The notes under the pieces are model-generated. The model ran no database searches. It was given only the letters and a program-made list of their open reading frames with translations, and was not told the DNA's origin. Positions 2,219 through 56,923 of a DNA stretch of 64,000 nucleotides are shown here, one piece after another. The first letter of the stretch is position 1. The number at the start of each line of letters is the position of its first letter. Location of the stretch: the NCBI GenBank assembly GCA_965649765.1, contig OZ287756.1:9858001-9922000 (forward strand), in the 5' to 3' direction. The position numbers were made by a program, and so were the translations under genes. The stretch comes from Bispira polyomma (lineage: Eukaryota).

Positions 2219-2292
2219 GAGCTGCACTGACATCATCTGCTGCCTGTTGTTCCTCATCTGTTTCTTGGCAATGATAGCTATTGGCATCTGGG
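2219..2292 (+). CDS. SLC44A2: SLC44 exon (TM1): (R)[24 protein letters not shown]
   Basis: ttcag|GA...TGGG|gtgagt; 74 nt; phase 2 to phase 1. Confidence 0.95.
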
Positions 2293-5200: not shown

Positions 5201-8200
5201 TTTATTTAGTTATTATTTTGATAACCTGTTTGGGGGTAGATTACTTATTATTTGATATATAGAGAGACGTGTGACCGTTTCAAGGTGGACCATTTATTAT
5301 TTTTTCAGAGACAAGCCGTACCTGTTCTTCTTTGACCTGATTGACTGTGCAAAAGTAGGCGTGGCTGTGGCAGTAACGGGTTGTCCGACACCTCAGGTAC
5401 TGTATCTATTCATTCTGGTATACTGTGACCTAAGGTGGCCCGGTGGCCTGGTGGTTAGAAACCCTTACCTCACAGTCACTGGCCTCTCACCAATGCTTTA
5501 AATCCTTTTCATTCCTTCATGTAGAAACATTTATCAAGTACCAGTAACTGGCATTTTCCTATCTCAGGACATTAGGGCCACAGTGATTCTAGTGGTTAGA
5601 AGTGTGGGCTTCACCATCACTGGCCTCTCACCAATGTGGGTTCGAATCCCATTCGTTCCTTCATTTGGGAAATTTAAATTACATGCCATTAATCTAGGTA
5701 CTTGCCGTAAGTCGGTGGTTTACAGTGGCTTCAGCACTGCTTTCTTACACCCTTAAATCTGGCGGCTATGATATGACCTGAGATGTTGAAAGTGACTTAA
5801 GACCCGACTAAATTCAAACCCTGAATGGCGTAATGGTCTGATGCAAACACAATGTCTTTGTAACTACACTTGTCATAAGAAGTTCACATTTTTGGGCACA
5901 ATTTATTCATCAGTAATTCTAGTTAATAGACTCAAAAATGAACATATATGATAAAACAAAATTGACTTCCTAGTTGTGAGGTTTTTTCTAGCCTTACAGA
6001 GCTTATGCATATCAACTAGTATATATGTATGTTTTGTTATGTCCAAGAATTCAATTTGTAAAAGGTAAAATTAATACATCATTATAAATGAGCATTCTTC
6101 AGTTAACAGAATAAAATTAACTTTGAAGGAATTATGGCCTTGAATTTGACATATTTTATATTCTCTGTTACATTTTAAGTTTTAAGAAATGATAGCCTTA
6201 AATTTGACATGTTATAGATTCCCCAGTTAAATTTTAAGTTAATGGTGTCAACAGAGAAGTTTAGCACATCGTTATTATATTACTTTACTTCAGCTATAGC
6301 CACAGATGTAGTTTGAAATTGTGGTACGTTATATTTCAGTATTTCTACAAAGAATTCATAAATGCCAGTGGTAACAAATGCAGTAAATTTTACTGAAATA
6401 AGGCAAAACTGATCCACTGACAAACTGAGCAATCAATAAAATTACAAATTCAATCAGGAGAAGTAAAACGACAGCCATTTTTCGAAATATACCATCTATA
6501 CAATTTTTAACTGTTTATTGCAGCTTTGGAAAGATCGTGGGGAATTCCCAAATTGTATATGGTGTTATTGATTACTTGCGTGCGGACTGACTAGAAAATG
6601 CTGTGCTAGGCATTTCTATTGTTAATATAGGTAAACTTTTAATCTATGTCTCACCTATCAGGTGTGCGTGGCCCACTGCCCAAATAACAGTTGGCATTAG
6701 TTGCCCCAAGTAACTTTTAATTTATTATTGTCTCACCTGTCAGGTGTGCGTGGCTCAATGTCCCAATAACAGTTGGCACTACCTGCCACAAGTGTCATCA
6801 GAAACGTTCTACCTGGGTGGTTCAGATAAGAGCGGCAGGGAAGATATGATCTGTAAAAGTCATATAAACCCTGTTATCAGTAACAAGGTAGCATTGCTAG
6901 GCTACATTTAAATCTTCCTGGTTTATATTATTTACATTAGAAGAGATCTTGGTGACTTTAATTTTGAAAACGCATCATTATTATTTGAACCCCTGACTTC
7001 GTATATTCACAAACATTCTTAAAATACAATTCTTACCAGAATTTTCTTAACATCATCCAATCGCTTTTCTTTAAACATTATCTTCAGCCAATCTAATTGA
7101 CCAAAAAAAAAAAAAAAATTCCAATCAAATTTTTTTCCAAACACTTTCTTTAGCCAATTAGATTAGTTGTGACAAAATTTAAACAATAAGAATCATTGTG
7201 AATATACCACCAGCTCTAGCTGTGCATATAGAATAAATATCTTCTGGCTTCTACTGAATGTGCTCGATTAATAATTATGTATCAATGGAAATTTGAGCTA
7301 AATAAAATGTCATTATATTTTTTTAAATTTCGAGATCCTTCACTGGAATTATTTTTTTTGTACACTGTAAATCAGTTCAGTAGAGTATTTGTGTAATATC
7401 CCAGTGATAAACAAACAAACCAACAGGCACACAAACACTCCATCTTGGAGGAGGGTAACGATGAGAATATTTCTGTACTCGTTCGTAATCATTGGACCAA
7501 TGTATATTGTTACAGTATACAGGAGTTTAGCAAGAGTCAAATTTCCATATGCACAGAATATTAAAATTTCTTAAAGTTCATTTATTTTTGTTTTGATATA
7601 TAGTTTTTTGTACATAGGTCTGATTATCCTCAGAGAAAACTCAAATATCAATTAAATTTTTCTTACTCTTTATGGTTATTTTTCTATTGGTGAGGAGTTA
7701 AGTTTTAGTTGATGACTTTTTACAATGTTTGGGAAATAATCAAACTATGTGCATTAGTCACAGGCGCTAGGATACGAGTACTTATTGAGTGCATTGTTTA
7801 CTGAAGCTGTTGCATGGTAATTTGCGCTATATATTTATATAGAGGTAAGCCGCTTATACAACAACAGTCGCTTCTGCAAACAATAAGTAGGCACGTGACC
7901 TTAGGCGCCTGTGGTATAAGTCATATAAAATACGAATAGTTTTATAGATTTCTTTAAAAGTTGCATCCCCTGTTAAGTAGAACTTGAAGGAGACTAGAGA
8001 AATACCTCTAGTTTAGGATTTCCACTTGACAGCATAAATTTAAAAAAAAGAGGTCTTTGATGGACTACAGAATTTTTTGTTTTCAATATGAAAGGGAAAT
8101 CCCCTTCACAGAGTTCTACTTCAAGGGCTTTGACTGTATCTATATATATATTTTTTTTTACAAGATTATGGTATAGGAACATTATTATTTTTTATACTTC

Positions 8201-11200
8201 CTTCAATTATGGCATGGAGAGAGCTGGCTCTTAATTATATGTAATGTCTATAGTTATGTCTTGCATGTATTTCAACTTCCCTCTTAAATTACAGTAAAAC
8301 CTCTATTATCCACAAACAACAGCCATCGTTTTATACAAAAAAATACCTCCCATCACCATTTCGTGAACATTCTATTATCCAAATAGAATAAGACTCTCCC
8401 CAGGTATTTGGATACTAGAAGTTTTACTTTATGTAAGTTGTCAGGTAAAAGTTAGCAATTATATACATTGAAATCCATAAGGTGGCACAATGATATGTTT
8501 GCATTAAAGAAGATACCTGGAATCTTATTGGGCAACATCTACATCACCGTGATTACCACCACGATGTATGGTCTCTGTTAATATTTTTTGTACATTTTAT
8601 CTTGAAATAAAATTCTATTCACTTAATTAATCCTCCACATCCTCCTCCTCTGGTGATTAGATCTGCGTAACGGAGTGTCCGAACGAGTACTTTGAATGGT
8701 TCACAACGCATGCCGCCGAGTTAGTCGACAGTTCAGATAAATCTGGCAGGGATAAAATGCTCTGTAAATATGATGTAGACCCGGAAACGTCGTCTAAGGT
8801 AAAATAACAAACACCTGTTGTGTCCGTGTTGTGTTTATATTTTATATATATATATATTAGGGTAAGGAATCTAAAATTTGCCACTGTCTATCTAAAATTT
8901 GTCACCTGGAAAATGTTGTGTTTTTGGTAGAATTGTGGGTAATATTTGCCGAAATTGAGATTATTGGGGACTATTTTGCCTTACTTTACCTAAATTCCAG
9001 TTATTTTTCGCCCAGTTTTTATAGATTTAGTTTAAATTTTAGAGGGGTGATTAAATTTAAGATGAATTGGCGAATTTTTTTATTCCTTTCTCTAGGGTGT
9101 GCTTTTGTAGGTGATGTTCACACCGTAGTCTGCCAGGGCACTGGGTATTAACAAAAACATTCTTTTAAAACTCATTCTTAGACTTAGTGTTTTATCTCAT
9201 GGAGTTTGGAACTGCCTTTTCATGTTATTGTATATATTTAAACCATGTGTATACTAAATACCAACAATTATTTTCAACAAACTCTGTTAATCGCTAAATC
9301 CAGTGAGTTTATGTGTAAACTTAAATTTCAATAAAAGTCCGTCATCAGAGTAATAATGTCATGGCTTTTTTTCTGGATCTTAGAATAGAAATATTCTCCC
9401 TAGAAAAACTTCCCCAAAACAAAGTTCATCAGCTTCTAGTGCCATAATTGACTTTTAATTTCACTGCATGAGTCACCCCCACGTATTTAAACTGAAAGTA
9501 TTTTAAATCAGAATAAGAAGTTTTGATGCAACATTTTTTTTAGGTTTTAACTGTAAACTAAAAAAAAAAAGAGTTTAAGCAGAAAATGAGTTTAAGCATT
9601 AGCTTAAGTCTAAGAATGTTTTTTGTTAATACTATCCCTGGAGTATGTTGTTTTAGTTATATCTAACATTATTATTATATATACATGTGTAGTTGAAGTA
9701 GTTAAGTAGATAATGCTGCAAAGTCAAGTTCTGGTTTTCTGTTATTGTTGTGGAGAAACATCAGTTCAGTGCCACAAAAGGGTACTTCTTCTTTTAAAGT
9801 TTTATGCTATTGAGATTCGACTTAAATGGTTCAACTGTTTATGTGTATATATAAGTGTGCACTACATGTCTATTAACATTTATGGCTGAATTGCTATTAC
9901 TGTAGAATCTGTATATTAAGTCGAAATGTGCAAAATCCACAGGATTTAGTTCTACTTCTGGCTAACTTCCACTTGTACATACAGTCAAACCCCCTTTAAG
10001 TAGAACTCTCTTAAGTCGATTTCCTTTTTATCTGAAGAAACATATTTCCTTTTCAAATTCGCCCTGATGAGTTTAACATTCTGCTTAAGTAGAGGTATTT
10101 GTCCTGGTCCCTTGGGTTCCACTTAAAGGGGTTTAACTGTAGTTTAAAACTGCTATTTTTGAATATTGGGACTAGAAAATTAGTTCTACCCTAAACTCTC
10201 TCTGAATAGCCCATGCTTTCATAATAGCCCACCCCTAGTTTCCTATAAACACTGTTGATATTTTGAATAGAAAAATTACATTCTCTGTAGAGCCCATACC
10301 CTACATTTCCTAAATTGAAGTTTAAAGCCTATGGGCTATTGCGAGAGAGTTTAGGGTAGTTACAGAGACATTGGACTTACTATACTGGTCCTAGTTATAG
10401 AGAGTTTACTGTATATGTCTGTTCATATTGTTTCACATTGTTTTACATTGTTTTACATTGTTTTAAATATACTAACCCATGGTTGCAAGTGATGCTATTT
10501 AACATTTGCTTTTGTTATCGTAAGTTAATAAATGTTTTCTTATTCACTCCTATATTTCTTGTTTAATACACTTTACTTTTAGTTTCTACTTAATTTTGGC
10601 TATAAAGCCTTGTTTCCATGCAGGCGCATACGCATAATCTGTATACGCCATATACATCTATCAATAAAGATAAATAAATATATATGTATGTAAATTTACA
10701 TTTGTACTTCATTTTTCAGTCATAACTTTCTTATTTCTGGTCCGATTTAAAAAATTCTTTCGCAATTTTTGTTGTTTTTTATGCCGCAAAAATGTTGGCC
10801 ATATTTAAAAAGTTTACATAAAAAAGCCAAGTGCTTATTAAATACAATTACCGTGATCCCATATCCATTATAAATGGCTCCTCTGGCAATTTGTAACATA
10901 CCATATTTACGTAGCATATATGGATGCATTGAAACTTTATTAAGCAGCTATTAAATTTTGACGCGTACTTGAAGTGTGATGTGTAGGGATGACAGTTTTG
11001 CATGGCATGGAAACGGGGCTTTAGTATGTCAGTTCTAACACTTAATCGGCTTCTAGTTGTGGTGTATAGTTTGTAGTGCTTATGTTTAACCCTTATCACG
11101 TTTATTAGGTGTGTGTTCACAGTTGTCCCAAAAAATATTTCTCTTGGTTGGAAGTAGAAAGCGGTCTTTATTCAAGGTCTGAATTAGTATGCAGACATAA

Positions 11201-14200
11201 GGTTGACCCCAGTGAGTCTTCAAAGGTAAACTGTCAGTCTGTCGGTTGTAATTTAGAGTAAGGAATCTAAAATTTGCCACTCTATCTAAAATTCGCCACC
11301 CAGAAAATATAGACTTTCTTTAAATCCTTTCCTCTCAAGTATTACATGAGGGCAGTTTGACTTTGTAAATAGATACTGGTGCTGAGAAAAGTATTTGCAT
11401 AGAAAAGACTGGCCCAATACACACAGTAGAATCATAATGGATAAATAAGGCTAAAAATACCAAGACTTGTGAGCCAGTCTTTTTTTGTTAGAATTGTGAA
11501 TTTGTAAGTAAATATTTTCTGATATTGAGACTTTAGTGACAATTTTGCCTTACTTTCCTAAATTTCGGTTATATTTTTGCCCAGTCTTTAAGGATTTGGC
11601 TTAAATTTTATGGGTGGTGAGTTTTAGATACGGTGACACATTTTAGATTCCTTACTCTACTTGTATTCATTTGTTAAACTCTTCTCTTTTAAGAAAGGTT
11701 AAATTTGTCCATTTCCCAATGTCTCTGTGTGGACGCAGTAAATGATCTATTTTGGTAATCCTTTCACAGTTTAAATCTAATAATATATGAAATTTCGTTA
11801 AAAATAGTGGGGGGGGGGGGGGCACAGTGGCCTTGTGGTTAGCTTCACAATCACTGGCCTCTCACCAGTGTGGGTTTGAATCCAATTCGTTTTCCTTCAT
11901 GTAAAAAAGTTTGTCAGGTACTTGCTGTAGGTCGGTGGTCGGTGGTTTACAATGCTTCAGCACTGCGGTTTCTCCAATAAATTTGGCTGTCGTGATAAGA
12001 CATAAGCTGTTAAAAAAGCGAATTCAAACTCAAAAATAGTGACAATTACTGTTGAGTGCCTTCAGTTCAGTCAAACCTCAACAGATCAGGAAGTATACCT
12101 CTACTCAAGCAAAATTTCCACTTAACAATTGTAGATTGTAAAGAAAACTTAGGCCTTAGTTGAACTACAAATTTTTCTCCACATAGAATGTAAAATGCTG
12201 GTAATAAGGCAGGATAAAAGATATGCAATGTTACACTCATCTGTTAAATAAATACAGCTGTTTTCTCTAAGTAATAAAATGACAAAACAATAGTAGACCA
12301 GTTGTGCACTGCAGCTTCAGGTAAATTATTATTTCTTGTTGTTTTTTCATTTAATGATATAGTCAGTGCAAGAGTTGGTAGAAGATGAGGACTGTGCAGC
12401 TTATTACCTCAACAGCAGTGCTTGTAAGTACACATGAAATATTCTTTTTTTGTGCTCCTATTTATACTCAAGTCACCACTTTCACCCCTTTCAAAGCCGT
12501 TATTTCTCAGCCTTTCCTTCAGCAACCTGAAGATGGGAAATAGACTTTCTCTTTCCTCTATTAGACCCACTGGGAGGGCTGAATCTAGAGCTTTCTCTAC
12601 TGCTGCTCCTATGTTTTGGAATGGTCTACCTGCTGAGCTAAGATCGCTTGAAACACTCTCTCTGGGTTTAGAAAAAAGCTTAAAACCCATCTTTTTGAAC
12701 TCGCGTACCTTCCCATAGTTTCCCTCCCTGTACACCCCTACATCCTTCCTTATGACCTTGGCTATGTTTTTGGACTTCTCTATTAATTTACTGATTCTGT
12801 TGTTGCACTTGCCAATTAGCCCATTCCTGACTGTAACAGTCAAGTTACTGTCATTCCCCTAACTAAAGAGAAAGGCTTGAGGATGACACTATTTATTTAT
12901 CAATGTCCGCAAGGATATTTAGTCTGCCACTTTGGATAGGACAGTGACAGAGGACACCGCCATTTCAAGTGGTCATCCGTGCAAGTAGGCAAACGTGTGT
13001 ACACATCTTGCTCCAGGATGTTTTCCCACTAATAAAACTAGCCGCCGGTACCGTGAGTAGAACCCGGTACCTTCTGATCATTAGATCAACTCCCTAACCA
13101 CTAGTCCACGGGGATCTGTGTAGTCTTCCAAGGCCTAGTGGTTAGAGAGTTATTTCGATGATCAAAAGGTTCCCGGTATGACTCCCAGTTGGGGGGAGTT
13201 GGTCTGGTGGTTGTGTGGTTCCTGGTTCAAAACTCCCGCTAAATGCCGCTAGGTTCATTAGTGGGATAAACATTCTTGTGCAACATGTGAATACACCATT
13301 ACCTACCATATGATGATAATGCAAGTGGTTATAAGCGTCTGCTTCAAAATCATAGGCATCTCACCCCTGGGGATCGAATCCCACAGATTCCTTCTTCATA
13401 TGAGAAAGTTTGTCAGATACTTGCCGGTAGGTCGGTGGTTTCTCACATCACTAATCGTGGCCATCGTGATATGACCAATGCTACTGAAAGTGACGTAAAA
13501 CCCAAATAAATTCAAATGGAAGCGTTCATATGGTGCCACATTGCTAAGTGCATCCTCTGAGACACTGATGATACCTCAGAGACTTTCAAGTACAATGCCT
13601 ATATCTTCTGTTTCCAGTGGCTGGGCGATGTGTGCCCACCTTTATCAGTACGATCATTGACGAAGCGGGGGAGTTGGTGGACTCAGGAGGCCAGGTTATC
13701 GTGGACAGACTGAATAACACAGTGAATGGGACGGCTGTAGAGGAGGGCACTAAGTGAGTACAGTCACGTGTGAATTCCTATCAACAATAAGTAAGATTGA
13801 TGTGTTTATCATGTGTGTTAAGACTACCTCCTACTTATGCTTGTTCAAAAAACGATGCTGAGACATCCCTCAAAGTAACCATCAATCCCTGTGGGTTTTT
13901 TTTCTGAAACCCGAGGTAAGCATATATCTCCATGGCCATTGCGAAAATTTAGGATTTTTCCAAATTTCTGCAATGAATGTGGCACGACAGGGGATATCGA
14001 TATACTTTCGTTCATACGTGATATGACCAAAACTGACCTCACCTAAATACAGGAATCACTTGGCGATAAACGGCCATTTTCGATGTGCCAGATACATGCT
14101 GGGTAAGCGGAGATAATTGCAAGGCCAACATGAAAGTGGGAGCCAGCCATTGATCACTGGGGCTTTATTCTTTGATTTAATTTAGTCTTAGGCTTAAGAT

Positions 14201-17200
14201 TTTTGATTTTTGCCGTTAAAATATTGGTCTGAATAAGGCTCTGTTTGACATTAAGCAAAGAGCTCAGTGTTACCTTTGCACTTAACACTAAGACTAACAG
14301 AAGGCAGTCTTACATAGTTTAGACATATTCAATGTTAAGCTGGAGACTAAGTTAAAATTAAGACTTTTGTGAATACAGCCCATAGAGTATAAAAATAGCA
14401 AGAAATTGGTATATACAGTCAAACCAAACAGAAACCACTCCTACTTAAAGAGAACTGTCAATTGTCCAGTGAATTTTCCTCTGTACAAATAGGCTCTGTA
14501 GCAATACCACTCCTACAAGTTATGACCAGAGACCGCCTAAACTATTCCCAACAACAATATTTGACCTGTGTATAAGAGACCGCTTTTAAATATAACGGGC
14601 CAATTTTATAGCCTCATCTAAGGGTCCAGGTTTGATCTTCACTGCAGGCCTGGAGAGTGTACCCTTGGACAAGGTGCCTCACCCAAAGTTATACTTCTCC
14701 AGCCAGGTGTATCAATGGTTACATGGCTACTAACGCATGGTCACCGTGTTAGTTTCTGTGCCGTATGTGGCAGCATGGCTAGTATACTCCTTGAGAGAGC
14801 TGACAGTGAAACAATTGGTTGACAAGTGGGTAGAACCCAGGCTGGGAGCGTAAACTGTGTACAGCGCTTTGAAAGAAAGCACTATATAAATGCATTTTAC
14901 ATTTACAATTAGTTTAGTTTGTCATTCTTTGTATTATTGTATTGTATTATATATTTTTAATGTTTAGGACATGTGCTCAAAACACGCAACATCTAAATCA
15001 ATCCATCAATCCTGTGTCCTAGAACAAGATAACCTCAGGGTTGGCATCAGTAAGCAATGGCTGTGTTCACATCTTGCCCAATGATGTTATCCCACCAATA
15101 TGATAGGGATATGGAAGACTTTAGTGTTGTTATTTTCATATCATACAGCCACCATAACTTCATGACTTTCTCGCATGTCTATTCTGTGCAATCTCTCAGA
15201 TACCTTGCTCTGTTACTGAGTGCCAAGGACTATGGGATGAAGATTTACCAGGACGTCCGCGCCAGCTGGTGGATGATAATCATGTAAGTTCAGAAGCCAT
15301 ATATAGTATTTTCTGAATATTTTGTATCAAGAAATGCGATTGGCTGGTCAAATTGTCTGAAGCATTCTATTTAGTTTAAATGAAGAAAATTCTGAAAATA
15401 GCAGATTTTTTTGTGAAACTCAATATGGTCTGTGGGGGTCAAAAACGTTTCAAGACTTGTTTATTATTTTTTAAGTTTTCTTTATTTTAGTCAATCAAAT
15501 TTGTTGACACAGTTTTGAATAACTTTCTGTCTTTTGGAACAAGAATAATTGTGAATACCAAATATTCTGTTATCCTGTATAGTGTAATTAATGAATTTTT
15601 TTTACATATTCTAGTGTATAATTATTCCGACTGAAATGTATAATTGATACATACCATTTTATCATCTTTGATTGATATATTGTTACATTTTTTGTAATAC
15701 TGTCAGGGGCGAAGCCACAGTTAATGCCAATACGCCCAGGCGTACCAATTTAATAACAAGGAAAAAAAAAGATTTAAAAAAAATTAAAATTATTATTATT
15801 CTGTTTGTTTTAGTAGTCACATAGATTCATGTTTTTAAAAATTTTGTTTTGGTACCCAAATTAAAGCAAAATCCCCCCATGAATTTAATTTTTGGTAGGC
15901 CAAAAACAACGTAATTTTTTGTTTTAATTGGGGAGTACCAAATGAAAAATCCTGGCTACTCCCCTGACTGTATCAGTGGAAAAAAAGAGTTAAAAAGTGT
16001 GTACAATACAATCCTAGTAGGACCAATAGGGCCTATATTTGATAAGATTACAAAGTAGAACTTCTAAAATTGACAGAGATCTTGTTCACAGATCATAGAA
16101 CTTCAAGGTTAATGAATTAGAAGATGTATTTCTGTTTGAAACAATAGAAAACATCAATTTGGGAGAGCTGTAAATAAGTTTTATGAGATTGGATGTTCCA
16201 ATTACAGAAGGTTGGTCAAAAGAGTTTCTACTGTAAAAAACTACACTTTATATCTATCACAATTTTTAACACAAGGCAGGTAGTACAACATATTTTATAT
16301 CCCCCAGTGTATTGCATATAAATCCTGTATTTCATGACCGAGTGGATAATACATAGAAAATAACCACAAACATTCTCAGCCAATCAAATTCTTTGAAATA
16401 ATATTTTAAGCCAATGAAATTTGGTTGAGACCAAATTTTCAAACTAAGAATTTTTGTGTGTACACCTGTACATTCCAGACGCTGACTGTTTGCTCGTTTT
16501 TTCAGTGCCCTGGTTCAGTGTGCCATCTTGACCCTGATATACATGCTCCTAATGCGCTGGCTGGCGACCGCTATGGTCCTCATTACAATCCTTGCTTTTA
16601 TAGGCGGGTTTGGGTTTGGTAAGAACAAGCATGACCAGTAAACCCTATTTCACTTTATGGTCATTCCTTGCGGGAGTGGCTGTCCATGACTTTTGTCGAA
16701 CTCTTTTTGAATGCGTTTCGTTTATTCTTGATTTTATTTTTTCCTTTTCAGCAGTCATAATTGTGTGTTTCACAAGTTTTCACGTGGTTTTACTTTCAGT
16801 GAAGTTTTGTTTTATTTTTTCAGGAATTCCTTGTCGTGACTACTGTACAGTTTATCTTTGTAATTCAGTCTCAAACTTACACCTAATTGGCGATCTGACA
16901 AAGGCTCAAAACTACCATGTTTATCCATATAAATACTGCATTCTTACTTAACACAATGTAATACAGTAGACCACTGTCTTCTGTTTGATTAACCTTCTAT
17001 TATCCAAACCAAATCTTGCTCTCCCAGCATGTCTGGATGATAGAAGGTTGATTTTGAATTTGGGAGAGTGGAAATGTCACCATAAAATCAGAGTATTCGG
17101 ATAACAGAAGTTCGCAGGTGATGCTATTGTATTTATCGTAGATTTGTTTATGAGGTGACGCATAAATTTTCCATCAGCGGTGTACTACTTTTATCTTGGT

Positions 17201-20200
17201 GGCATCTTTGATGTACCCAGCTTGTGGCCATGGCTTAATTGCGGGTGCGGTAATATTTCTGTGGGAAATTTCATATACCTAATATTGTATTTTATTCTGA
17301 AAGCTATAACTTTCTTATTTCTTGTGGGATTTTTAAATTTTTTTTTCACCATTTTAACCAGAAGAATAATTCGATCGCATAGCGGCATTTTTTTTGCACC
17401 ACAATCCTACCTCTTCTATTTTACTAAGGATCAATTTTATTAACGCAATCCACACCAGCAGCAGCCAACAGCCCAATTGAGATAGTTTGGTATATTAGAG
17501 TGTCATCGATTAGAATATCATATATGAGTGCATTATGAAACCCCAGAAATCACCTGTAGTGAGAGTTTTAATGACTTTTGCTATCTGTGAACTTATCACT
17601 GAGAATTTCCTTCGGTATATGATAATACTGCTCCATTAGTGGCGAAGGGCTTAATAGAGTTTTAGGCACTAAATTCAATTATGAAATCAAATTTTAAATA
17701 CGTTTACTGTATCAGGAATGATCTAGATTTGAGTTAAGTATGAGTTTGAGCTGAGTATTATGATGTTTGTTTGGAAAGTTTATTGTTTATTGTATTTTCT
17801 ACTATGTGTACTACAAGGGTGGACAGCTTAGCGGGCGGGACAGCGATAGAGGACAGTAACTTAAAATATAAAATTTGTTGCATTTACAAAGCCTTCTTCA
17901 AAATATAAAGTATTTAACCGACTAATTTTATTGTAAATACAGGCTTTGCATCCAAAACCGGGTCAGATTACTTGTTAAATAGATAAACTGTGTACATTTT
18001 AAGCTACTGTCCGCTAAGCTGTCCAACGTCCGCTAAGCTGTCCACCCCTGTAAAGATATTTACTATCCTGTCTTTTCCCGTTGTGGCCAGTGACCGTATT
18101 CTTGAAATTATCTCAAGCTCATTTCTGACTCAAGCTCAAATTTACAGTGTATTTGTTATTGGCTAGGGTGAAGTGAAGTAAAATGACTAGTCACAAGAGT
18201 ATAGGTTGTGCCTTAATTTACATGTTTGAGTTGAGTCTATTCTTAAGTTTCTTTCAAGAATACTGTCCCTGTGTTAGCCCTATTGTGGCCTTTATTTAAG
18301 ATAGTTTATGGTAATTTCCTCTTTGTGCTAGATATTTCCTCTCCTCTTAAATGTTTCAGACATAAATATTCAGCTAAAGACTTAGTTTAGACTCAGACCG
18401 TGGCTACCTATGGCTTTTATTGAGGCAGTTTATGGTACTTCCCACCCTGTAACTGTATATGTTCCTACCCTGTCTCTTTTGCCTCTCCAGTGGCCTGGTG
18501 ATAACTATATTGTGGCTAGCTATGGCTTTTATTAAGAAAGTTTATGGTACTTTCCACTCTATACAATATATGTCCTACCATCTGTGTCCTCTAGTGGTCT
18601 GGTTTTAGCCATATTGTGGCTACAGCTATGGCCTTTATTGAGGCAGTTAATGGTACTTTCCACTCTGTACTATATATACCCTCCTGTCTCCCCTCTACAA
18701 TGGCCTGGTGTTCGCCATGTGGCCTATGGCATCTATTTAGAAAGTTCATGGTACTTTCCACTCTGTACTATATATTTCCCTACCCTGTTTCTTTTTTCCC
18801 TCTCCAGTGGTCTGGTGATAGCTATGTTGTGGTGCTTTGTTTGGATTGTGCTCATGAGATGGCTGGCTGGTATCATGGTCTGGCTCACGATTGCCATCTT
18901 TATTGGGCTCTTTACCTTCAGTAAGTATTTATCCTTCTCTATTTATTTTCACGCTTAAGCTCTTGTTTCCATGCATGCAAATGTGTCATCCGTGCACATT
19001 ATACAAATATATCAAACATTATTTGACGAGTACATTTAACTGTGTACGTCATCAGTGGTGTACTAACTTATGGGAAGGTCTGGGGGAAATGGTGGCCTAA
19101 TGGTTAGAAATGATTGCTAATAATCACTGGCCTCTCACCAATGTGGCTTTGAATCCAGTCCGTTCCTTCATGTGGGAAAGTTTGTCAGGTACTGACTGTA
19201 GGTAAGTGGTTTACACTTGCTTCACAACTGGTTTCTTCCAACGTGTCAAAATATGTCTAGCAGTGATTTTAATGACTTTTAATGGATTTTCAAAAGGTAG
19301 AAGTTGAATAAAATTTACAGTTTATTGTACTAATAAATATGAAAATGCGGTAAAGAAATTTTGTCACTTTGGACAATGCACAAAAAATGATGTAAGAATT
19401 ACTAAAATCAGCCCACAAATGAGAATGTTGTGCTTTGAAAACTACATGTTATTATACACACTGCATGTGAAATAAATGATCTTGCCTCATTAGCTTCTGT
19501 CAGTGGAAGGTCGGTGGTTTACAGTTATTTAGAACTAGTTTCTTCCGCAATTAAATCTGGCCATCGTGATTTGACCTGAGTTGTTGAAAGTGCTGTAAAA
19601 CCCAACTATATTCGTGTTCAAAATCTTGCATCATTGACCGATAGGTTTGCTGGGAACAGATGACAGAGATATATGCACAGGAACATCACCTGATAAGTCT
19701 ATTGCTATGTCAAAGTCTCCACATTAAAGAAAAATGTGTTGTCATAGTTATCGTAAAGCTTCAGCTATCTTTAGCACAGTCACTTCTATATATGAGAGAG
19801 ATAATCTGACAGTACATATAAAATAATAGACTATAGTCTATAAAGATACCATGTTTAAATTAAATCTTGACCATAAAAGATGCTGACAGTAATAATGTAC
19901 TCGGGATTATTTGGATTAACCAATACCAATCTGTATTTGCTCTTATAATACCGCCAAAGGTACACCACCTGGTACAGTACGGTACCCCAGTACCTCAGGA
20001 TAGGAACTGACTAGCAACATTACCGCTAATGAAACCATACTAAACATACAGTCTAAATACAATTTACGTAGTAAATAGTAATTATTGTATCAAGCTTTAA
20101 CCCTATCTTACACCTGAAGCTTTACTGACATTTTAAAATGCACCTTGGCATATTTTTACCTCCACCAAGGACTTGTATAGAGTTGTCTACTGTATCTAAC

Positions 20201-23200
20201 TGTAGTTTAATGTACATTTCACACACTGTTAACATTTTATGTTGTCATTACAGCCACCTACTACTGCTTCACCAAGTACGTGGAGTTAAAAGATTTACCC
20301 GAGTCGTCGGGAGCCATCATGTTCACCACCAACCTGGACTACTACCTGAATCTCACCTACACTTGGCTCACACTAGGTAAGTGATGTTTTTTTTATTTTT
20401 TTTTTTTTTTTTTTAAAAGGTAAGTGATGTTGTGGTGATGAATTGTTCTCTTATTTATGACAAATAAACTTACCTTATCCTTACAATATGCTGTTTTTGT
20501 TCCTTCATACCTTTTACTATATCATAGGTGGTTTGTAATCGAAAAGGGTTAAATGTGGGGAAACTAGTGATAACTTAAATGCAGAGCCAAGTCGAGTTTC
20601 ACATGAACTTGTCAGGTATGACGCACATTACAACAAGAGCTATCCAGAATTGACATGACTATCACAACCTATATAATTATTACGGATTTTTAACACGCTT
20701 TGGGGGCCGCGGTGGCCTAGTGGTTAGCAAGCATTGCGCTTCACAATAACTGATCTCTCGCCTCTGGGCGGCGTGAGTTTGAATCCCGTCGATGCCTATG
20801 TGGGAAAAGTGGTAGTTCCTTACTGTGGGCCGCTGGTTTCAGTGCAGAACCTTGATCAACTGTATGCAGTGTTTCATCCAGCGTTTCCAACTACCCGTCC
20901 CAATATAACCTAAACAGGTACTAGAGTGGACGTTAAATATCCCAATTAAAAAAAAAAACTAACACGCTTTTTTGATGCTAGGCATTTTCTAAAGTGCAAC
21001 AGCAGAATCAGTGACCCAATTCTAAAGTCCATTAGCATAGCAAAGTCATAAGGAAAAATGTGGAGTGTACTGGAGGGTGGTAGGCAAAGTTAACGAGTAG
21101 AGTGTTTTCCTAAAACCGATGAGTATATCTACTGACAGGAGGTCAACTGGGAGGCTGTTCCATAAGCATGCAGCTGCAATGAAGAAAGCTCTGAATCCAG
21201 CCTTCCTGGTGGGTCTAACCAAAGAAACAGAGAGTCTGTTGCCTCTCTTTAGGTTACTCAAAGAGAGAAGCGAAGCGAGTTAGGAGGGTTGTTAAGTGAC
21301 TACAGCCTTAAAAGTGATAACGTGAATTTTGAAAGGTGCTGTAGTGGTGAAATAGTTTTCTTATTTACGACAAATTAGCTTACCCTTATCCTCACAATAT
21401 GCTATAATTATTTTTTAATTAACCCGCCCGACTAAAAAAGCAATACTAATAGGCACAGAAATGCTATGAGTTTTGTTGGACATCACCCAAGTTTTGATGC
21501 TGTTGTAAAAATGGTCAATTTCCGATAGTGGTTGAGTGAAGTTGCCGGGTTGGCAACCAAAAACAATAGAAAGGTAACACATACCACAAGGAAGTGAGGA
21601 CAATTCCTGCACATGCGCAGTACACTTTGTTGGGAGATGTACCAAGATTAGTCTTTGAAAAAAAAGACAATTATTCTTTTTTTGTCGGGCCGGTTATTCA
21701 AATAGAAATAATGTATATTGTGAGGATAAGGTAAGTATTTATCTTACAAAAAGATAAATTACAAAAAAATATTTACAAATGATATATCGACAATATGGGA
21801 ATTGCACAATAGAACCTTTATTAGCTAAGTATTTAGGGAGAGCAAGATTTTATTTGGATGACATAGAAGTGTTGTTTCTAAAACAATAGGAAAGCATAAA
21901 GTTAGGAGAGTAGGAAAAGTTGATAAAATTGAGTGTTCAAATATTAGAAGTTTAGATAATACAAGTTTTTCTGCATCTGGGGCATGGGCCAAGAAAAAAA
22001 TCTACTAAATTTTGTGGATCCAAGGATTGTTTCTCTTTTTTGCACACTTTTGTGTATTGTGTGACACCTTGGCAGAGTTACGCGTTCTACTGAGTGCCCT
22101 TAAAAGTTGGTTTAATGCTATTATAACTGATATCCATTCTTTGTTTATGTATTTTCTAGGTATCATATCGGCAGTGATTCTCTTCATCATTTTAATTGTG
22201 ATCCTCTTCCTAAGAAGCAGAATATTGATTGCTATCGCCCTCATCAAGGAGGCTAGCAGGTAGGTTTAGTTTAACACAAATATCGGGGCGTGGTGGCCTT
22301 GTGGTTAACAATCACTGGTCTCTCACCTCTGGGCGGTGTGAGTTTCGAATCCTGTCGATGCCTATGTGGGAAAGGTGGTAGTTCCTTACTGTGGGCCGCT
22401 GGTTTCAGTGCAGAACCTTGATCAACTGTATGCAGTGTTTCCTCCAGCGTTTACAACTACCCGTCCCAACTACCCGTCCCAACTACCCGTCCCAATATAA
22501 CCTAAACAGGTACCAGAGTGGACATTAAATATCCAAATTAAAATTAACACAAATATCACGACTAAAGGTTCACATATTGGCGGTATGGTAGGCGGAATCA
22601 GAAGGTAGCAGAATTAACTGTGAAATCACCTGTTCCATCTTGTCACAGATGAAAACAGTAGGCAAAAGACCAGAACAGACAGTTACTGTTATGGTAGACT
22701 TACAGTAGGGTGAAATAGAAATACTTAGGAACACTCAGAAAAAGGGCAAAATTGTGCGGTAACGGGATGAAAAATTGCAGTATTGCAACAGAAAATACCC
22801 GGAAATAGTTGGAAATGGGCGGAAACAGCTGATTACTGGGAAGGTAGGGTTACAGTAGTAATTTGGCAATATTCGGAAATCGTCTGCCTTTTTCCGCTTT
22901 GATTAATGTTTATTAGATAAGTTGAATGTGAAAACGACGAAGTATCGCCACACAAGATTACTGTGGTACAGCACTTTTAAAACAAAACACAACAAAATTT
23001 TATGTACAATAAATTAGCATTGGATTGATACTAAAATCATTTAAAATGGAAAGATCCAAATAAGAAGCCACAGCTAAAACAATATTATAAATGTTTTTGC
23101 TTAACTGTAACAACAAAATGCAGCAGTGTAGAGAATTGTGCTATACATACATTACAAATGGGTTTTTTTCGGATTATACTCAACTTAGGCTTTGCTGTAA

Positions 23201-26200
23201 GGTTATAGATAAACCGGAAGGGGTACCCAAGGAGATGGACCAAAATAAATAAAATTCACAGTGAGTGATTTATTTGTGGCAAGACTTATTTCTTACTCCT
23301 CTGCACATATGCACTGTTAGCCAATTTTGTAGTACATTGTTTTCCATAGGGCTGTAGGCCAGATGATATTCACCCTGTTCTGGCCCCTCATCCCTTGGGT
23401 CTTACAACTTGCTCTGTTTGGTTACTGGGGAGCGTCCGCTCTATACCTCGCCTCCATGGGACAACAGCAGTATGCACAGAGCTTCAAGAATGTTACTAAC
23501 ACCACCAATGATGATGGGAGCTACACGCTAGAAGAGGTGGTCACTACGACAACGGATTACGTACCATGCGACCCAACGGAAAATTCCACTGCTGGCTCTG
23601 TGTGTAACTTTCTAAAGAATGGGGGCGATGAGTAAGTATGAATGGAAAATATCTTGCTGTATATGTATATATATATATGTTCATTGAAAAATAACTTGTT
23701 TTGGGGTTAACCCGTTGTGTAGTCAATGAATATCAGTGCCATAGCAATGATTGTGTGGAAATATGTGAAAACCATTGCACCACTTTCATTTACTAAGCAT
23801 TTAATGTGTTTAAAAGATATATAAAACAGGAGGAATTTCTGTGAAATAACATGAAATAAATTTGTGTCAGACTATAAATATAGTATGAACCCAATTACCT
23901 GGTTTCTTTTTCAATGAAGTATATATGTAGTCAAAGTCCAAAAATGCTGCTGCTACTAAAAATATAAATATTCTTACTCACACAGTTTAGTATATCTATA
24001 TTTTTTAGATTCAAAGCACTGGGTAGTCCTTAATTTTTCTTTTAAATCAATTCTGTAATGCTGCGTAATCTCCGGCTGTACTAACAGATTCTAAGCTGCA
24101 AGGGTCCTCAAGTGTGCAACTTAGTTTAAAGAGATGGAACTTGAAAAATGCTTCATCTGATTCCAGCTCCACTGAATAATGGTTGGTCTTCTGTTTCCTG
24201 TATGTTGCGCAGTTAGTCTTGTGATCGGAAGGTCCCCAGTTTGACTGCAGCTTTATGCCACAGGGTTGATAATGGTGGGATAATATATCTTTAGGCGAGA
24301 TGGATCATGCCATTGTTGTAGGACATCTGATTAGTTTATCAATTGTTAGAATTGTTATTGCATGTTAGAAGACGCCTCGCATCAGTAAACCACGTTAATA
24401 AATATATATTTATTTCAATTGTACAAATAACAGTAATGTACAATAAGGTTTGGTAAATTGAAGGAAAAATAAATGATACAATAGATTAATGTCCTCCTTT
24501 GTTTTTCTGCTTCCAGGTACACCATTTACCTACAGTTTTACATGCTGTTCATGCTGTTCTGGGTGATGAACTTTATCATTGCCCTGGGTCAGATGACGTT
24601 AGCTGGAGCTTTCGCCTCCTATTACTTCGCGTTTAAGAAACCCGATGATATCCCAGCATTCCCTGTTACCGCAGCACTTTGGCGTAGTCTAAGGTATAGT
24701 GATTTATAATTTTTACGTTACTTATTTTTAAACACTGTTTTCAAATGCAATTTATGATCATCAGGGTGTTGTATTTGAGATCAGCTTTATTCAATTTACT
24801 GCCAATAATGGTTTTGGGGATAGTATAATTGTCATATTATAATCTTCCTGATTACACTGTATCTGTATCTGGCCATCATGGTTTTGTATTCGAGATAAGC
24901 TTTATTAGTAATATTATATATATGTACTAGTAAAATTTAAATACTAATGAGTTTCAAAAGTACCCAATGCCTGGCATATATTTTTACTATTCATTCCATC
25001 TGGAGACCCTGGATTTTGAAGCCCTAAAGTTTTTAGCGCTGAATTTGAATTATAATGTAGAGTTGGGGGTCGAGGTGGCGCTTGCTAATAATTACTGGTC
25101 TCTGGCCATAATGTGGGTTTAAATCGTGGTTGTTCCTATGTGTGTGGAAAACTTTGTCAGGTATCTTGCTGTGCAGTAGGTTGGTTGTTTTTTTTTACCA
25201 TTAAATCTGGCTGTTGTGTGATATGACCAAGTCTGGTGACAGCGATAGAGAACCCAACTAAATTCAAATTCAAATATGCGGTCAGCTTTTAAATGCATGT
25301 TTCCCCTCAAAAAATATAAGGTGACCTTATAGAGTTGAGCTTGAGTGTGAGTTGAGCTCCAGGGCCCGTATTCTCGAACGTATACTCAGCTTAAACTCAT
25401 ACTCAACTCAAATCTAGATTCTCTATATCTCTAAATACGGTATATATATTAAAAATCTGACTTGATATTTGAATTCAGGGTCAAAAGCTCTGTTAAAATG
25501 AATGGTCACAAGTCTAGGTTATTTCCATGTATAATGATTTCCACATGGCCTATTTTTGAGTTGAGTATGAGTTTAAGCTGAGTATACGTTCGAGAATACC
25601 GGCCCAGAGATTTTTATGGACCTTTTTATCTGGCAGTGCTAAGTCTGATCCAGTACGTTATAACTGTAATAAATGTGAACAAAGGATGTGTCAAATTTTG
25701 TGTAAAATTATTTCTATGCCCTATGTACTTGTATCTGTGATTGTATGGAACCATGACTTAACTAAAATGTGAACAAAATATGCGTAAAATTATCATAACT
25801 ATAACCACTACTATTAATATTGTATTGTCAAGGTGACCTAAAAGCCCAATACGGCTGGGCAATTTTTATTTACCTGTATTACATATTGTTGTCATTATAT
25901 TGTATTGCATGTCACTATAATAAATAAATATATAATATAGGTACAAAAACAAAGGTTGCATTTCAAACAATGGAGCACAGAGATTCTCCTGTCAAACATT
26001 GAAGGTAGACCAGTTGTTTGTCTAAATTCTTATTGGACCAAGAGGCAGCCTATGAGTGAAAGGGTGTTCCACACCCAGTTCAGGGGACAGCTCCTGAAAC
26101 TGACTCTCCAGCTTTGGCTTAGTTTAGAGAAGTCAGAAAATCCTAAATTAGTGTTACTTCGGGACAGGAGGGAATTAAGTATTACCAAAACTTAGTATCA

Positions 26201-29200
26201 CAGCTTGTCTTTGGATGAGTAATCAGGAAATAAAGCACAGAACTGAATATTGGTCTTCATATTTACCCCTCCCTAACATCAGTTTTTGCCGAGCTACACC
26301 CTCTAATCCCCAGTAGTGATATAACAGCAAGTACCTATTTCTTGTTTCCTTTCAGGTTCCATCTGGGGACTCTTGCCTTTGGAGCACTGATCATTGCCAT
26401 CATCCAGATAATCCGTGTGATGCTGGAGTATGTCGATAGTAAACTTAAGGGAGCAGAGAACAGGGTGGCAAAGTTCTTTATCAAGTAAGTGATGTAAATA
26501 ACCCCTTACAGATTTTTTACGTCCCCGTGGTTAGGGAGTTGGTCTGGTCATCGAAACATATATAAAGCCCGGACAAGGCGCAGAAATCCTGATAAGATTT
26601 CCTTTGCGTTCTAGTCTATTCAACTTCAATTCACAAATTCAAAATTCATTTCAATCACAGTGTCTCCTACAGTGCACTAAAACTTTGGACAGTCTGCCTC
26701 AAGAAATTCGTACTGCTGCTACCTTTCCATCCTTTTGAAGCAAACCTACGACATATTTGTTTGTTAAGGCTGTCTCTCCCTAGTTATGTATTCATTTCAA
26801 TGTCTCCTGGGATATGACCAGCTTCTGTTAAAGGACATTACGAAACTTGAATATGATCATGTAATATAGATTAGCAGGTCCCGTGTTCCACTCCCGGTAC
26901 CGGCCACCAGTTTCCTTTGGTGGGATAACATATCCATTGGCAAGATGTGAACACAAGTTTGCCTAGTGGTTCAAATGACCACTTAAAATGGCGGTCCACT
27001 GTCACGTGAGTTCTATCTCCAGTGGTAGATTAAAGATCCTTGGGGCCATTGATAAATGGTCATCCTTAAGCCTCGGCGCCTCTAATGGCTGCCCATGAGG
27101 AAGCACATTTCAAATGACCTTATGTTGTACAAGTGCGCTACAACAAATATATGTTATGTCGAGTAGAACTCAACAATTAGGGTCATTCCACAGTACCATG
27201 ACTTTTTTTACTTTTCTTCAGTAGCACACATTTGCAGCATCTTAGTAAGTTTATATTTTATTGAAATCACCTTGTCTATGCCCGTAATATTATGGCTGTT
27301 TGCCTAATAGTATGATCAGGATGTTATGGCTTTTTGAGTTCTAGAGACTAGATCAGATTTAGATTACAGCAGAAGTCATTGTGTTTAAAAAATAATACAC
27401 AAGACTGTTAGGAAATGCCGGAAGTCATCTGTGGTGTGTGTTTTAGTGACTCCAGCTGTCTGCAACTTGTAGCCTGGCAATTTCCTTCAGTATATTTAAC
27501 TACTGTTCTATTGGGGGTAAAGGGTTGATAATGGACATTCAGTTACTGTATAATTATTTTTGTGCTTGGAAGTATGAGCTCTGCCATCTTCCGTCCTTGT
27601 GTTCTTTTTTGTGCATTCAAAGGAAAAGTATTGCAGATATATCTTCTATACTGGTTTTAACAACTAATTGTGAAATTGGAATTTATTTCACTAATTAGAC
27701 ATGTTTGTTCAAAGGGTAAATACTTTGAGATGTCACAAGTTTGACTGTAACTCTTTTGTTCTCCTTTCAGATGTCTCAAGTGCTGCTTCTGGTGTCTTGA
27801 AAAAGTCATCAAATTCATTAACAAAAATGCATACATTCTGGTAATTATTTCCAAATAAAATTTTAGTAAATCGGTAAATCTTAGAGTTTGAATTGTTAAA
27901 TATATATTAAAATTTGTGTATATTCAAAGTTTCATTATTTTCTATTTCTTTGTTGTCAAGTAACTCTAATCAGTGATTATTAAAAAAGTTTGAAACTTGT
28001 TCAAGTCAAGAGAGTAATTTGCTTTGTGGTTTAATTAATATATATATATTCTCTTTATTTTAAGACGGCCATATATGGGTACAATTTCTGCAAATCAGCA
28101 TTCACAGCTTTCAACCTGATTCTCAGGAATATCGTCAGGTAATTCTATGTTTACTGTAACTTTTTCAAATTAGTTTTTGCTGTTTAAATTGTGTTTTGCT
28201 TTTGTATTGATTAACTGTAAAGTTTTCTTGTGACTTTAATACAGATGTATGCTTAATAATCAAGTAACTTTATGTTATTTGTCATGACATATTTTTATTT
28301 ATCATTCTGTTCACACTGTTATTGTAACTACATGTAGAAGGAAAGAAAAACCCTAAAAAATAAAATGATGGCCAACAAAAAAAGATTATCTCAAAATAAT
28401 AAGTCAACAAAAAAGATAAGTCAATATCAATTGAGACACTTAACTCACTTTATCGAGATAAATAAGTTTGACAAACAAGACAATAATTTTACTCCTGACA
28501 TATATTTGTATGTGTCTATTTTTAGAGTGGCTGTGGTCGATAAAGTGACAGACTTCATCGTCTTCATAGGCAAACTGGTGGTTGTGGGAGCTGTCTGTAA
28601 GTCTACACATTGTCTTACTATGTGATATACATATATTACCGCCAAACCCCTTTAAGTAGAACTCTGATAAATGGAATTTCTTGTTAAGTAGAAGTTATTA
28701 TAAGGTCCCATGGCTAAAATTTACCCTGTTAAATAGAACAAATTGTTATGGTCCCTTAACATTGACTTAACAGGTATTTAGATGTATATTATTATTATCA
28801 TTTATATGTCAACCAGTAGTTAACACTGTCACTTAGGAATGTGGAGGACCTGGGTTCAATCCCTGAGACTGGTTCAGTAAAATATACATGGCTTCCTTCT
28901 GTCACTGGCTCCTATATGTGGACATGTTGATCAATGGTGTCGTCCCCAACCTTCTGACTCCACAGAAATCTTTTAGTGCTTATATCTGTATGTCTCTTTT
29001 CATTGAGTTAAGTTTTTAAAAAATGTTAAAAAATGGTAACTTCATTTTAAGAATTAGGAAATAAGGCAGATTAAATTTGTCCTTTTAAAATTTTTTTTAT
29101 ACAAATTAATAGATAATGAATTTGAATTTGGATATTTAACGTCCACTCTAGTACCTTTTAGTAGGTTATATTAGGATGGGTAGTTGGAAACGCTGGAGGA

Positions 29201-55635: not shown

Positions 55636-56923
55636 ATTTATTGCAATGCAATTCAACAATAACAGTTATCCAATAATACAATCAAATAATAATTACACAC
55701 TTAACGAATCACTGATAGAATTTAATAAATATCCAGTACAAATATAATCCAACACTTTTCACATGAAAATCACATATAATTAATTAATAAGAAAATTCCT
55801 AATCCAAAGTTTCTAATCCAACAAAAAGTACAAATCCTTGCATTAAAATTCATAGATGACTGAACGACTGTAAATGTGTGCCTGCGAGCCTGTATATATA
55901 CCCATACAAGATTTCTTGCGTCATAATGCGAGACCTTATAACAGCCAATGGGGGAGTACGTACATAGCCTTCTGTATTTAAACTTTTCTGCGAAAACTCG
56001 GGTGTCTGTACATGAACTTTATCGTGCTCTTACAAGATTGAACCTGCCCTTGCGTGTTTAGCGTATGTCTGCGTGAACCAACATAAAATTGCGACTGATG
56101 ACGTGGGAAAATGCGACACGATGCGACAGTTGACGTGTATTTGCGAGTTCAAGCGTACTTCAATGGCCGTTTCAACGTGAGATTCTTGCGTTAATGCTTT
56201 ACATGGAAGAAATGGCTTCAACGAGGCAGTACGTCTGTTAACATTTCATACGTCACCTTGCAGGGTAATGACGAACATTCACCCATTGTGACGTATATAG
56301 CTGTTAAAGTACACGAAATGTCGCAATGCTCATGTGAAAATACCCATTTCAGTACGTCAACTTTAGTTAGCTTTTGCGTGTCCAAATTTCAAATGGTTTG
56401 AAATTATTAATTTCTTGCGTGTCATCTCTCACGTCAGGTTATGCTTGCTTAAGTAATGTACGTCAGCTCCCGCAAATACCACGCAAAAAACCTACGCAAA
56501 TTAATTTTCTAGCGACAGCAAATGTGACGGCCGGGTGGGACCAGGGCATTATAGCTGGATACAAACTCTATATTGATCTTGTCGATCTTGTCAAACGCCC
56601 TCTTCGAAACTCTCATTTCCCTGCCTCCAAACTCGAAACAGTTATTGGCCCTCCCTGCTGCATGTTGCTCTTTTGGTGCACTTTGCAGGCTGTAATATTG
56701 GTGTTGTGTGCCCCCAGGATGTTGTCGTCTGCTTTCAGTAAATGGAAAGAGGGAATAGGATTTACAATTAATGTTTTTTATTTCATGATGGAGCTCTTAG
56801 GTTAGACTGGGCAACTCAGTTTAAATATATTGTCAGCTTCAGCTCCAGACTAAAAAAAAAAAAAAATGTTGAAATTGTTCAGTTCTTTTCTTGCAGTGAT
56901 ATAACTTCTTCAGTATGGATTTA

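Follow-up and report, generated by a model that had tools for sequence, protein, structure and literature searches.

The locus analysed here raises the question of whether two 113-nt exons of a putative choline transporter-like gene, B1 and B2, are spliced as alternatives, and of what such a swap would change in the protein. The gene lies in a 64,000-nt stretch of Bispira polyomma DNA (the window), which contains its exons e2–e20; the first coding exon falls outside it, about 300 nt upstream, at about G000:C9:9857685. PF04515 scores above its cut-off in e13 and e14, and the protein is 58–73% identical to its nearest CTL2-like proteins, with best matches among CTL2/4/5. We consider it highly probable from the sequence that B1 and B2 arose long ago as copies of a single 113-nt exon, are intact in both of two tandem SLC44 genes and are spliced one or the other, which would yield two full-length proteins that differ in M2/M3.

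Table 1. Features of the host gene and of its tandem paralog. Plain positions refer to the window.
Feature	Position	Strand	Description
Host gene, exons e2–e20	2219..38035	+	SLC44A2/4/5-like (CTL2-like); PF04515; open 706-codon frame
Cluster A	6744..8798	+	A1 6744-6887, A2 8661-8798; extracellular domain
e8	15200..15283	+	constitutive, upstream of the B pair; extracellular domain end, M2 start; donor gtaagt, phase 2
B1	16506..16618	+	alternative exon, 113 nt; acceptor ...ttttcag, donor gtaaga; derived form: M2, M2-M3 turn and most of M3, with Thr for Gly at 21 and a new Gly at 34
Tandem repeat	18400..18807	+	unit of ~106 nt, 3.7 copies; degenerate copies of the B2 acceptor and its first ~25 nt
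B2	18808..18920	+	alternative exon, 113 nt; acceptor ...ctctccag, donor gtaagt; family-typical
e10	20254..20376	+	constitutive, downstream of the B pair; M3 end, loop, M4 start; phase 1 start
Cluster C (candidate)	32077..33542	+	C1 32077-32198, C2 33424-33542
Paralog B1'	G000:C9:9770085-9770197		counterpart of B1; 113 nt, AG..GT
Paralog B2'	G000:C9:9774846-9774958		counterpart of B2; 113 nt, AG..GT

Layout and authenticity of the exon pair

Both exons sit between e8 and e10, and each starts in phase 2 and ends in phase 1. The frame from e2 to the stop is open over 706 codons with B1 alone or with B2 alone. Joining both brings in a stop at 18816, which is 1335 nt ahead of the last junction and has 11 junctions downstream, and omitting both brings in a stop at 22254, 1013 nt ahead of the last junction. 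The first-pass annotation had thus correctly described equal lengths and phases (2-1) and a frameshift upon inclusion of both exons or neither. Its statement that the two share LMRWLA and differ at most other positions also holds, as 20 of the 31 residues outside this motif differ; identity over the full length is 17/37 at the amino acid level and, ungapped, 55/113 at the nucleotide level. When the 36 open AG..113 nt..GT windows found on either strand of the 64-kb window were compared with B2, B1 scored 78; the runner-up, a decoy that copies the start of B2 itself, scored 25, and the rest were negative. No third B-like exon emerged from a search of both genes, which returned only four matches at E<1e-12 (the next had an E of 0.045).

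DNA contigs of three public runs, which represent at most two samples of one study and are possibly the source of the assembly itself, match B1 and B2 with 0 differences, and the depth over B1 is flat, which rules out an assembly artefact. No B1 variants occur across the three runs. The repeat immediately upstream of B2 is also found in DNA contigs with 0 differences. It carries two decoy acceptors (18491 and 18595), the AG of its third copy is mutated to AA, and it has no match in the searched 50 kb of the paralog. Such B2 acceptor repeats, together with an A0 fragment that contains a stop, are dead partial duplicates within the host gene.

Residue signature, selection and history

The tandem paralog, located about 100 kb upstream, has 72.5% amino acid identity to the host gene at a dS of about 1.4, the same exon-intron layout and both B exons intact; A1 and A2 are present as well. 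All four A/B combinations are open in the paralog, and B1'+B2' or neither leads to an early stop. Exon identity amounts to 20/27 amino acids for e8 and 33/40 for e10, and the pooled constitutive exons give a dS of 1.38 and a dN of 0.15.

Comparison with 115 homologue segments supports the earlier description of B2 as family-typical: it matches the family consensus, and its profile score exceeds those of 81 of the 104 distinct segments (B1 exceeds none and B1' two). The features by which the first-pass annotation had set B1 apart require revision. The GGFGF end is mostly family consensus (G33 in 61, F35 in 58, G36 in 58 and F37 in 69 of the 115), with only G34 rare. The Q-C in M2 is no B1 signature, since B1' has I-A there; the Gln at position 4 is found in 0/115 homologues. 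B1 does lack several Trp residues (one against four in B2), but this is not a signature either, as B1' keeps W12 and W25 and W8 is peculiar to B2 (2/115 homologues). The signature common to B1 and B1' is the loss of the turn glycine and the gain of a glycine at the M3 end: position 21 is Thr/Cys in B1/B1' and Gly in 100/115 homologues, and position 34 is Gly in both exons and in only 2/114 homologues (one misaligned row was dropped). None of the 115 homologues carries both marks, and none of the segments is a B1-type protein. A weak search of longer proteins with a B1+B1' profile produced 459 word-sharing candidates, none at E<=10. A HMMER search of 1.84 billion representatives returned 12 matches, none B1-type: all 12 are nearer B2+B2' than B1+B1' by summed BLOSUM score, with G or A at position 21 in 12/12 and G at position 34 in 0/12.

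The conservation of B1 was assessed in one genome, against the tandem paralog. B1 and B1' show a pS of 0.88 and a pN of 0.35 (Fisher p=5e-7), which indicates purifying selection; the corresponding value for B2 is p=9e-5. Identity between B1 and B1' at codon positions 1, 2 and 3 is 22, 26 and 9 of 37, the third positions being saturated. In a neutral simulation without indels, 0.33% of 20,000 runs at a dS of 1.0 and 0.05% of 20,000 runs at 1.5 ended with both copies intact. The first-pass annotation had pointed to disruption or absence of B1 in relatives as evidence against the pair; in the tandem paralog the exon is intact and under purifying selection. Because it is intact in both genes, is under purifying selection and would survive neutrally in at most 0.33% of cases, B1 is very likely a coding alternative.

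These data bear directly on the possibility that B1 is a dead duplicate, a pseudo-exon that is never spliced in, with B2 constitutive. Such a reading would fit the lack of a B1 protein among the homologue segments, word-sharing candidates and HMMER matches, the score of B1 below all 104 distinct segments, and the presence of other dead partial duplicates in the same gene. Nevertheless, it is scarcely credible, given that length, frame and both splice sites of B1 are intact in two genes at a dS of about 1.4, that the neutral expectation is at most 0.33%, that pN is far below pS, and that the exon is variant-free in the three DNA runs.

B1 changes at roughly double the rate of B2 (dN of 0.47 vs 0.21). 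The window B1 lacks the family-conserved M6, W12, I13 and W25, all of which B1' keeps, and the loss of W12, I13 and W25 may mean relaxed constraint. We consider it quite improbable that B1 was long functional and is now relaxing in the host gene while B1' carries the role. The lost residues, the gain of Gln4 and the M2-half profile score (11.6, where B1' reaches 26.5 and the median homologue 43.8) are in line with relaxation; however, B1 has suffered no stop, indel or splice-site loss, both helices retain their hydropathy (best 19-residue windows of 2.64 and 2.22), and adaptation could explain the fast change equally well.

The exon duplication probably predates the gene duplication. Informative nucleotide sites favour (B1,B1')(B2,B2') by 8:2:2, which is the best topology under 4/4 models, and B1 and B1' group together in the presence of 12 outgroups (SH-aLRT 80.6 / UFBoot 92). 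The AU test does not reject independent duplications (p 0.06–0.17). The B1+B1' grouping may reflect long-branch attraction.

Proposed choice between the two exons

In the scheme that we propose, B2 would be used by default, and B1 would be a minor form, probably restricted to certain tissues or stages. The B2 acceptor is the stronger of the two (17/17 pyrimidines vs 14/17 for B1). Regulated choice of splice sites would make the two exons exclusive, and nonsense-mediated decay (NMD) would clear double-inclusion and skipped transcripts; the stops created by either event are compatible with NMD. Two other mechanisms of exclusivity are ruled out: steric blocking by the 2189-nt spacing, and a U2/U12 mismatch by the ordinary GT-AG sites of both exons. 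Docking/selector RNA pairing received no support, as the best duplexes (−30 to −38) resemble those of shuffled sequences (−30 to −37, three shuffles per gene). The 25 longest of 80 inverted repeats were rejected as pairing elements, since they look like transposon-type or AT-rich matches. No conserved intronic element was found between the paralogs, whose introns align at repeats only, and the positions of TGCATG sites do not match between them. One intronic match to the paralog (score 69, null maximum 34) was rejected as a dispersed repeat, which has 8 matches in the window vs 0.27 expected and is placed differently in the two introns.

As both exons have good splice sites and are spaced by 2189 nt, double inclusion is physically possible, and the resulting stop precedes 11 junctions. 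B1 might then act mainly as a poison cassette that, joined with B2, shifts the frame, triggers NMD and lowers gene output. This role needs no amino acid conservation, yet codon positions 1 and 2 of B1 are conserved against saturated third positions and two hydrophobic helices are kept, which makes it very improbable. Under the preferred reading of B1 as a coding alternative, and with clusters A and C, up to eight isoforms are possible from each of the two genes.

Position in the CTL fold and relation to known exon pairs

The B segment aligns to CTL1 residues about 218–255, that is, M2 and most of M3, which supports the TM2-TM3 location originally assigned to the swap. The CTL fold (10 TM, with an extracellular domain between M1 and M2) was tested on a 73%-identical homologue rather than on the window protein. 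The model of this homologue matches 9qu3, 7wwb and 9f63 (Foldseek E of 6e-14 to 9qu3), and the B segment is helical in it with a pLDDT of 90–95. The host gene resembles the SLC44A2/4/5 family, CTL1 (7wwb/9qu3) and PNS1 (9f63) in PF04515, exon boundaries, fold and the M2-M3 motif.

The suggestion that the swap could alter substrate preference fares less well. The nine proposed pocket residues, five of which are unlike CTL1, are all located in e13, e15, e17 and e19, and since the B exon lies outside them, a substrate switch is unlikely. Choline and ethanolamine transport is itself disputed for the SLC44 family, and uptake of neither was observed for CTL1 in oocytes (PMC13160678). The same study describes M3/M4 of CTL1 (248–305) as a mobile, unmodelled part. 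The swap would leave the proposed pocket untouched and repack peripheral M2; it would also shift a glycine out of the M2-M3 turn into the outer end of M3, part of the M3/M4 wall that is mobile in the CTL bowl. Judged from this placement by homology, the swap would likely tune opening, lipid contacts or partner binding, not substrate identity.

Mutually exclusive homologous exons are a well-known class of events, of which the internal M2-M3 pair would be a moderately surprising member. In humans, 21 paralog clusters of the duplicated-exon type include SLC44A2/SLC44A5 (PMC4494069; Abascal 2015), and tandem duplicated exon events are enriched in membrane and ion-transport genes (PMC9741552). Such substitutions are, like B1/B2, homologous, equal in phase and retained in both paralogs after gene duplication (PMC4494069, PMC9741552, PMC8373072). 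The human SLC44 events listed in the PMC8373072 supplement, however, are only N-terminal (SLC44A2) or C-terminal (SLC44A2, SLC44A5), whereas B1/B2 is internal, in M2-M3, and from an invertebrate. Literature listings outside subscription journals and bioRxiv supplements showed no publication that describes an internal exon pair in SLC44. Unlike the host gene, sampled SLC44A2/4/5 members have no two versions of the B exon (0/40 isoform sets, all from other, non-annelid taxa); some of these sets alternate at three other exons.

Another parallel is provided by coq-2 exons 6a/6e, which are mutually exclusive in nematodes, flatworms, molluscs and annelids and likewise form an internal pair with one universal-like and one lineage-specific member (PMC7434440). 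The coq-2e form remodels the enzyme core and switches the substrate, whereas B1 lies outside the proposed pocket; coq-2e also spans several phyla and is backed by RNA-seq and knockouts (PMC7434440), whereas B1 has been seen only as sequence in one genome.

A broader and rather doubtful proposal is that exons of SLC44A2/4/5-like genes have been duplicated again and again across animals, with internal events at four positions (in this annelid, a brachiopod, a nemertean and amphioxus) on top of the known vertebrate terminal events. Only this lineage would then have placed a splice switch in the mobile wall that M2-M3 forms in the CTL bowl, with B1 as a natural gating or lipid-contact variant and the pocket unchanged. 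On this proposal, the two forms would offer a natural comparison for probing the role of CTL proteins, should choline transport not be it.

What SLC44/CTL proteins do at the molecular level is contested: their fold is unusual, and choline transport by CTL1 was not reproduced in oocytes (PMC13160678). An old, selected pair of putative isoforms that differs only in M2-M3 adjoins the sole helix pair that moves between structures. As a matched pair for comparison, B1 and B2 point at the M3/M4-side wall as functionally tunable.

The B1/B2 exon pair and its host gene

The downstream exons of the window gene match Pfam PF04515. Among named proteins, the best matches are CTL2-like sequences of annelids (Lamellibrachia, 68%; Ridgeia, 64%; Owenia, 63%; Capitella, 62%); a transcript comes closest overall, at 73%. 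An annelid host is therefore likely, as is membership of the gene in the SLC44A2/4/5-like group. Another contig carries two further, more distant SLC44 genes. Arrays of 48-52-nt minisatellites occupy introns of the window gene (29758-30938 and 37703-37850). Elsewhere in the window, ORFs at 50980-52210 (+) resemble a broken DDE transposase, apparently of the Harbinger/PIF type; around 53700-55665 on the minus strand there may be a Myb/SANT-like partner. Short Cys-containing ORF pieces at 58268-58555 (+) and 60815-61393 (−) resemble, we assume, PAN/apple-type secreted protein exons.

B1 and B2, two putative alternative exons between the constitutive e8 and e10, align without gaps, with 55/113 nucleotides and 17/37 residues identical. 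The 64 kb contain 36 open windows of the form AG..113 nt..GT; scored against B2, B1 reaches 78, the next 25, and the rest are negative. A 19-exon model (2219-38035) gives a 706-codon open frame with either exon. Inclusion of both creates a stop at 18816 (11 junctions remaining 3′) and omission of both a stop at 22254 (nine remaining), which bears out the frameshift proposed in the first-pass annotation. DNA contigs from three public runs show no differences to B1 or B2; as these runs are possibly the source of the assembly, they exclude an assembly error and nothing more.

Features of the window gene and its tandem paralog (W, window positions; C, contig positions, G000:C9)
Feature	Numbering	Coordinates	Strand	Remarks
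e8	W	15200-15283	+	upstream flank of B1/B2
B1	W	16506-16618	+	113 nt; AG before, GTAAG after
B2	W	18808-18920	+	113 nt; AG before, GTAAG after
e10	W	20254-20376	+	downstream flank of B1/B2
B2 acceptor + first ~25 nt, tandem repeat	W	18400-18807		~106 nt, 3.7 copies
A0, partial duplicate of A1 acceptor + exon start	W	6662-6743		in-frame stop
Cluster A	W	6744-6887; 8661-8798		extracellular domain, phase 0-0
Cluster C candidates	W	32077-32198; 33424-33542		
Intact tandem paralog	C	9735845-9811712		
B1′	C	9770085-9770197		113 nt; both splice sites intact
B2′	C	9774846-9774958		113 nt; both splice sites intact
Cluster A, paralog	C	9749907-9750035; 9752095-9752259		
Cluster C candidates, paralog	C	9800375-9800493; 9809769-9809863		

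The tandem paralog and selection on B1

Both genes lie on one contig, the tandem paralog ~100 kb upstream; it has the exon layout of the window gene and carries counterparts of both exons, B1′ and B2′. The two proteins are 72.5% identical, compared with 72.0% between the window gene and a transcript from another source; 14 constitutive exons of equal length, taken together, give dS 1.38 and dN 0.15. The paralog's frame is open in all four A/B combinations (A being a further alternative-exon cluster) and again stops early with both or neither of B1′ and B2′. At the DNA level e13 and e15 are 93% and 92% identical between the genes, against ~77% elsewhere, which may reflect local gene conversion or strong constraint.

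B1 and B1′ differ with pS 0.88 and pN 0.35 (Fisher p=5e-7), and 22, 26 and 9 of 37 sites are identical at the three codon positions; for B2 and B2′ the values are 0.60 (pS) and 0.18 (pN). Neutral evolution of an unused exon was simulated in 20,000 runs per setting without indels; both genes retained an intact copy in 0.33% of runs at dS 1.0 and in 0.05% at dS 1.5. Because pN is far below pS and neutral survival in both genes is rare, B1 is constrained as protein, which argues against its being either a dead copy or a pure poison exon. Informative sites favor (B1,B1′)(B2,B2′) by 8:2:2, the best tree under all four models, and B1 and B1′ cluster with support 80.6/92 in a tree with 12 outgroup segments; the alternative topologies survive the AU test (p 0.06-0.17). 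The exon duplication likely, if not provably, preceded the gene duplication. B1 and B2 are thus a genuine exon pair, old and maintained by selection, and their use is very likely mutually exclusive; the expression and function of the alternatives are predictions from sequence.

Position in the protein and distinctive marks of B1

Through a 73%-identical homologue, the B segment aligns to residues ~218-255 of human CTL1, comprising the greater part of helices M2 and M3 and the turn between them, in agreement with the TM2-TM3 location assigned initially. The predicted model of this homologue (mean pLDDT 83.7) is helical in the segment and matches CTL1 and PNS1. As described in PMC13160678, M1 and M2 of CTL1 sit at the periphery, residues 248-305 (M3/M4) are mobile and were left unmodelled, the pocket is made from M6, M8, M9 and M10, and CTL1 in oocytes took up neither choline nor ethanolamine. 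The nine proposed pocket positions fall in e13, e15, e17 and e19 of the window gene, outside the B exon, so that a direct change of substrate, as suggested initially, is unlikely. An effect on M3/M4 opening, lipid contacts or partners would be a better guess, with the chances of its being right about evenly balanced.

Of 121 homologues fetched, 115 contained the segment, and removal of one misaligned row left 104 distinct sequences. B2 outscores 81 of these 104 segments, B1′ two and B1 none; it is M2 and the turn, rather than the tail, that lower the score of B1. The GGFGF end, listed earlier as an oddity of B1, is near the family consensus GxFGF. Nor do the Q-C and Trp peculiarities make a signature, since several occur in B1 of the window gene and not in B1′: Q4 (0/115 homologues), M13 (0), L25 (1) and loss of W12. 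B1′ retains family residues there and has lost W18 instead. Common to B1 and B1′ are replacement of the turn Gly at position 21 (Gly in 100/115) by Thr/Cys, a Gly at position 34 (2/114) and the run TILAF-GGFGF; no homologue in the set carries both the position 21 loss and the position 34 Gly.

Proposed exon choice and recurrence of exon pairs

Steric and spliceosome-type exclusivity are ruled out by the introns between B1 and B2 (2189 nt) and B1′ and B2′ (4648 nt) and by GT-AG sites throughout the cluster. A search of the B introns for a conserved non-repeat element or competing pairing found none, a weak test on only two, saturated introns. We propose that exclusivity would arise from regulated exon choice, with NMD as backup. 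The major form is likely B2, given its stronger acceptor (17/17 pyrimidines; B1, 14/17) and the B2-like sequence of all database proteins examined. Upstream of B2, splicing at a decoy AG (18491) would cause a frameshift; another decoy AG at 18595, 213 nt upstream, is in open frame with B2 (ORF 18536-18955), and its use would lengthen the protein by 71 residues with no stop. The 50 kb of paralog searched contain nothing that matches the acceptor repeat; this repeat and A0 are the same "acceptor plus exon start" type of duplication.

Protein database searches found no B1-type proteins. Eleven of the 12 matches from one of these searches look like read-through gene calls that depart from the family sequence at the 3′ edge of B, which suggests that this boundary is old. 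In other taxa, 40 sets of isoforms or clusters were compared (18 + 22; brachiopod, nemerteans, molluscs, ticks, echinoderms, amphioxus, a fish and further transcripts; none annelid), and none alternates at B. Alternating blocks occur at exon A in Lingula (three annotated forms) and Branchiostoma (two), at C in Lingula and Tubulanus, and at e17 in Branchiostoma; cluster A may be ancient or convergent. Each paralog has a second frame-keeping C candidate, which precedes C2 in the window gene and follows it in the paralog; the two are not clearly alike. In amphioxus, the alternating e17-equivalent exon includes pocket positions of M9 (CTL1 N533/D537 region; Branchiostoma P0022/P0027, P0033, P0147-P0158) and is a better candidate than cluster B for a pocket-changing switch.

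PMC4494069 describes, as a class, homologous exon pairs that both paralogs retain, and an excerpt of PMC9741552 reports enrichment of such pairs among membrane proteins. For human SLC44, the accessible part of PMC8373072 gives terminal events only, whereas the B pair is internal; coq-2 offers an annelid precedent for an internal function-switching pair (PMC7434440, as excerpted). The literature searched held no description of an internal SLC44 exon pair. The B pair matters mainly because the function of the SLC44 family is open and because this gene recurrently gains exon pairs.
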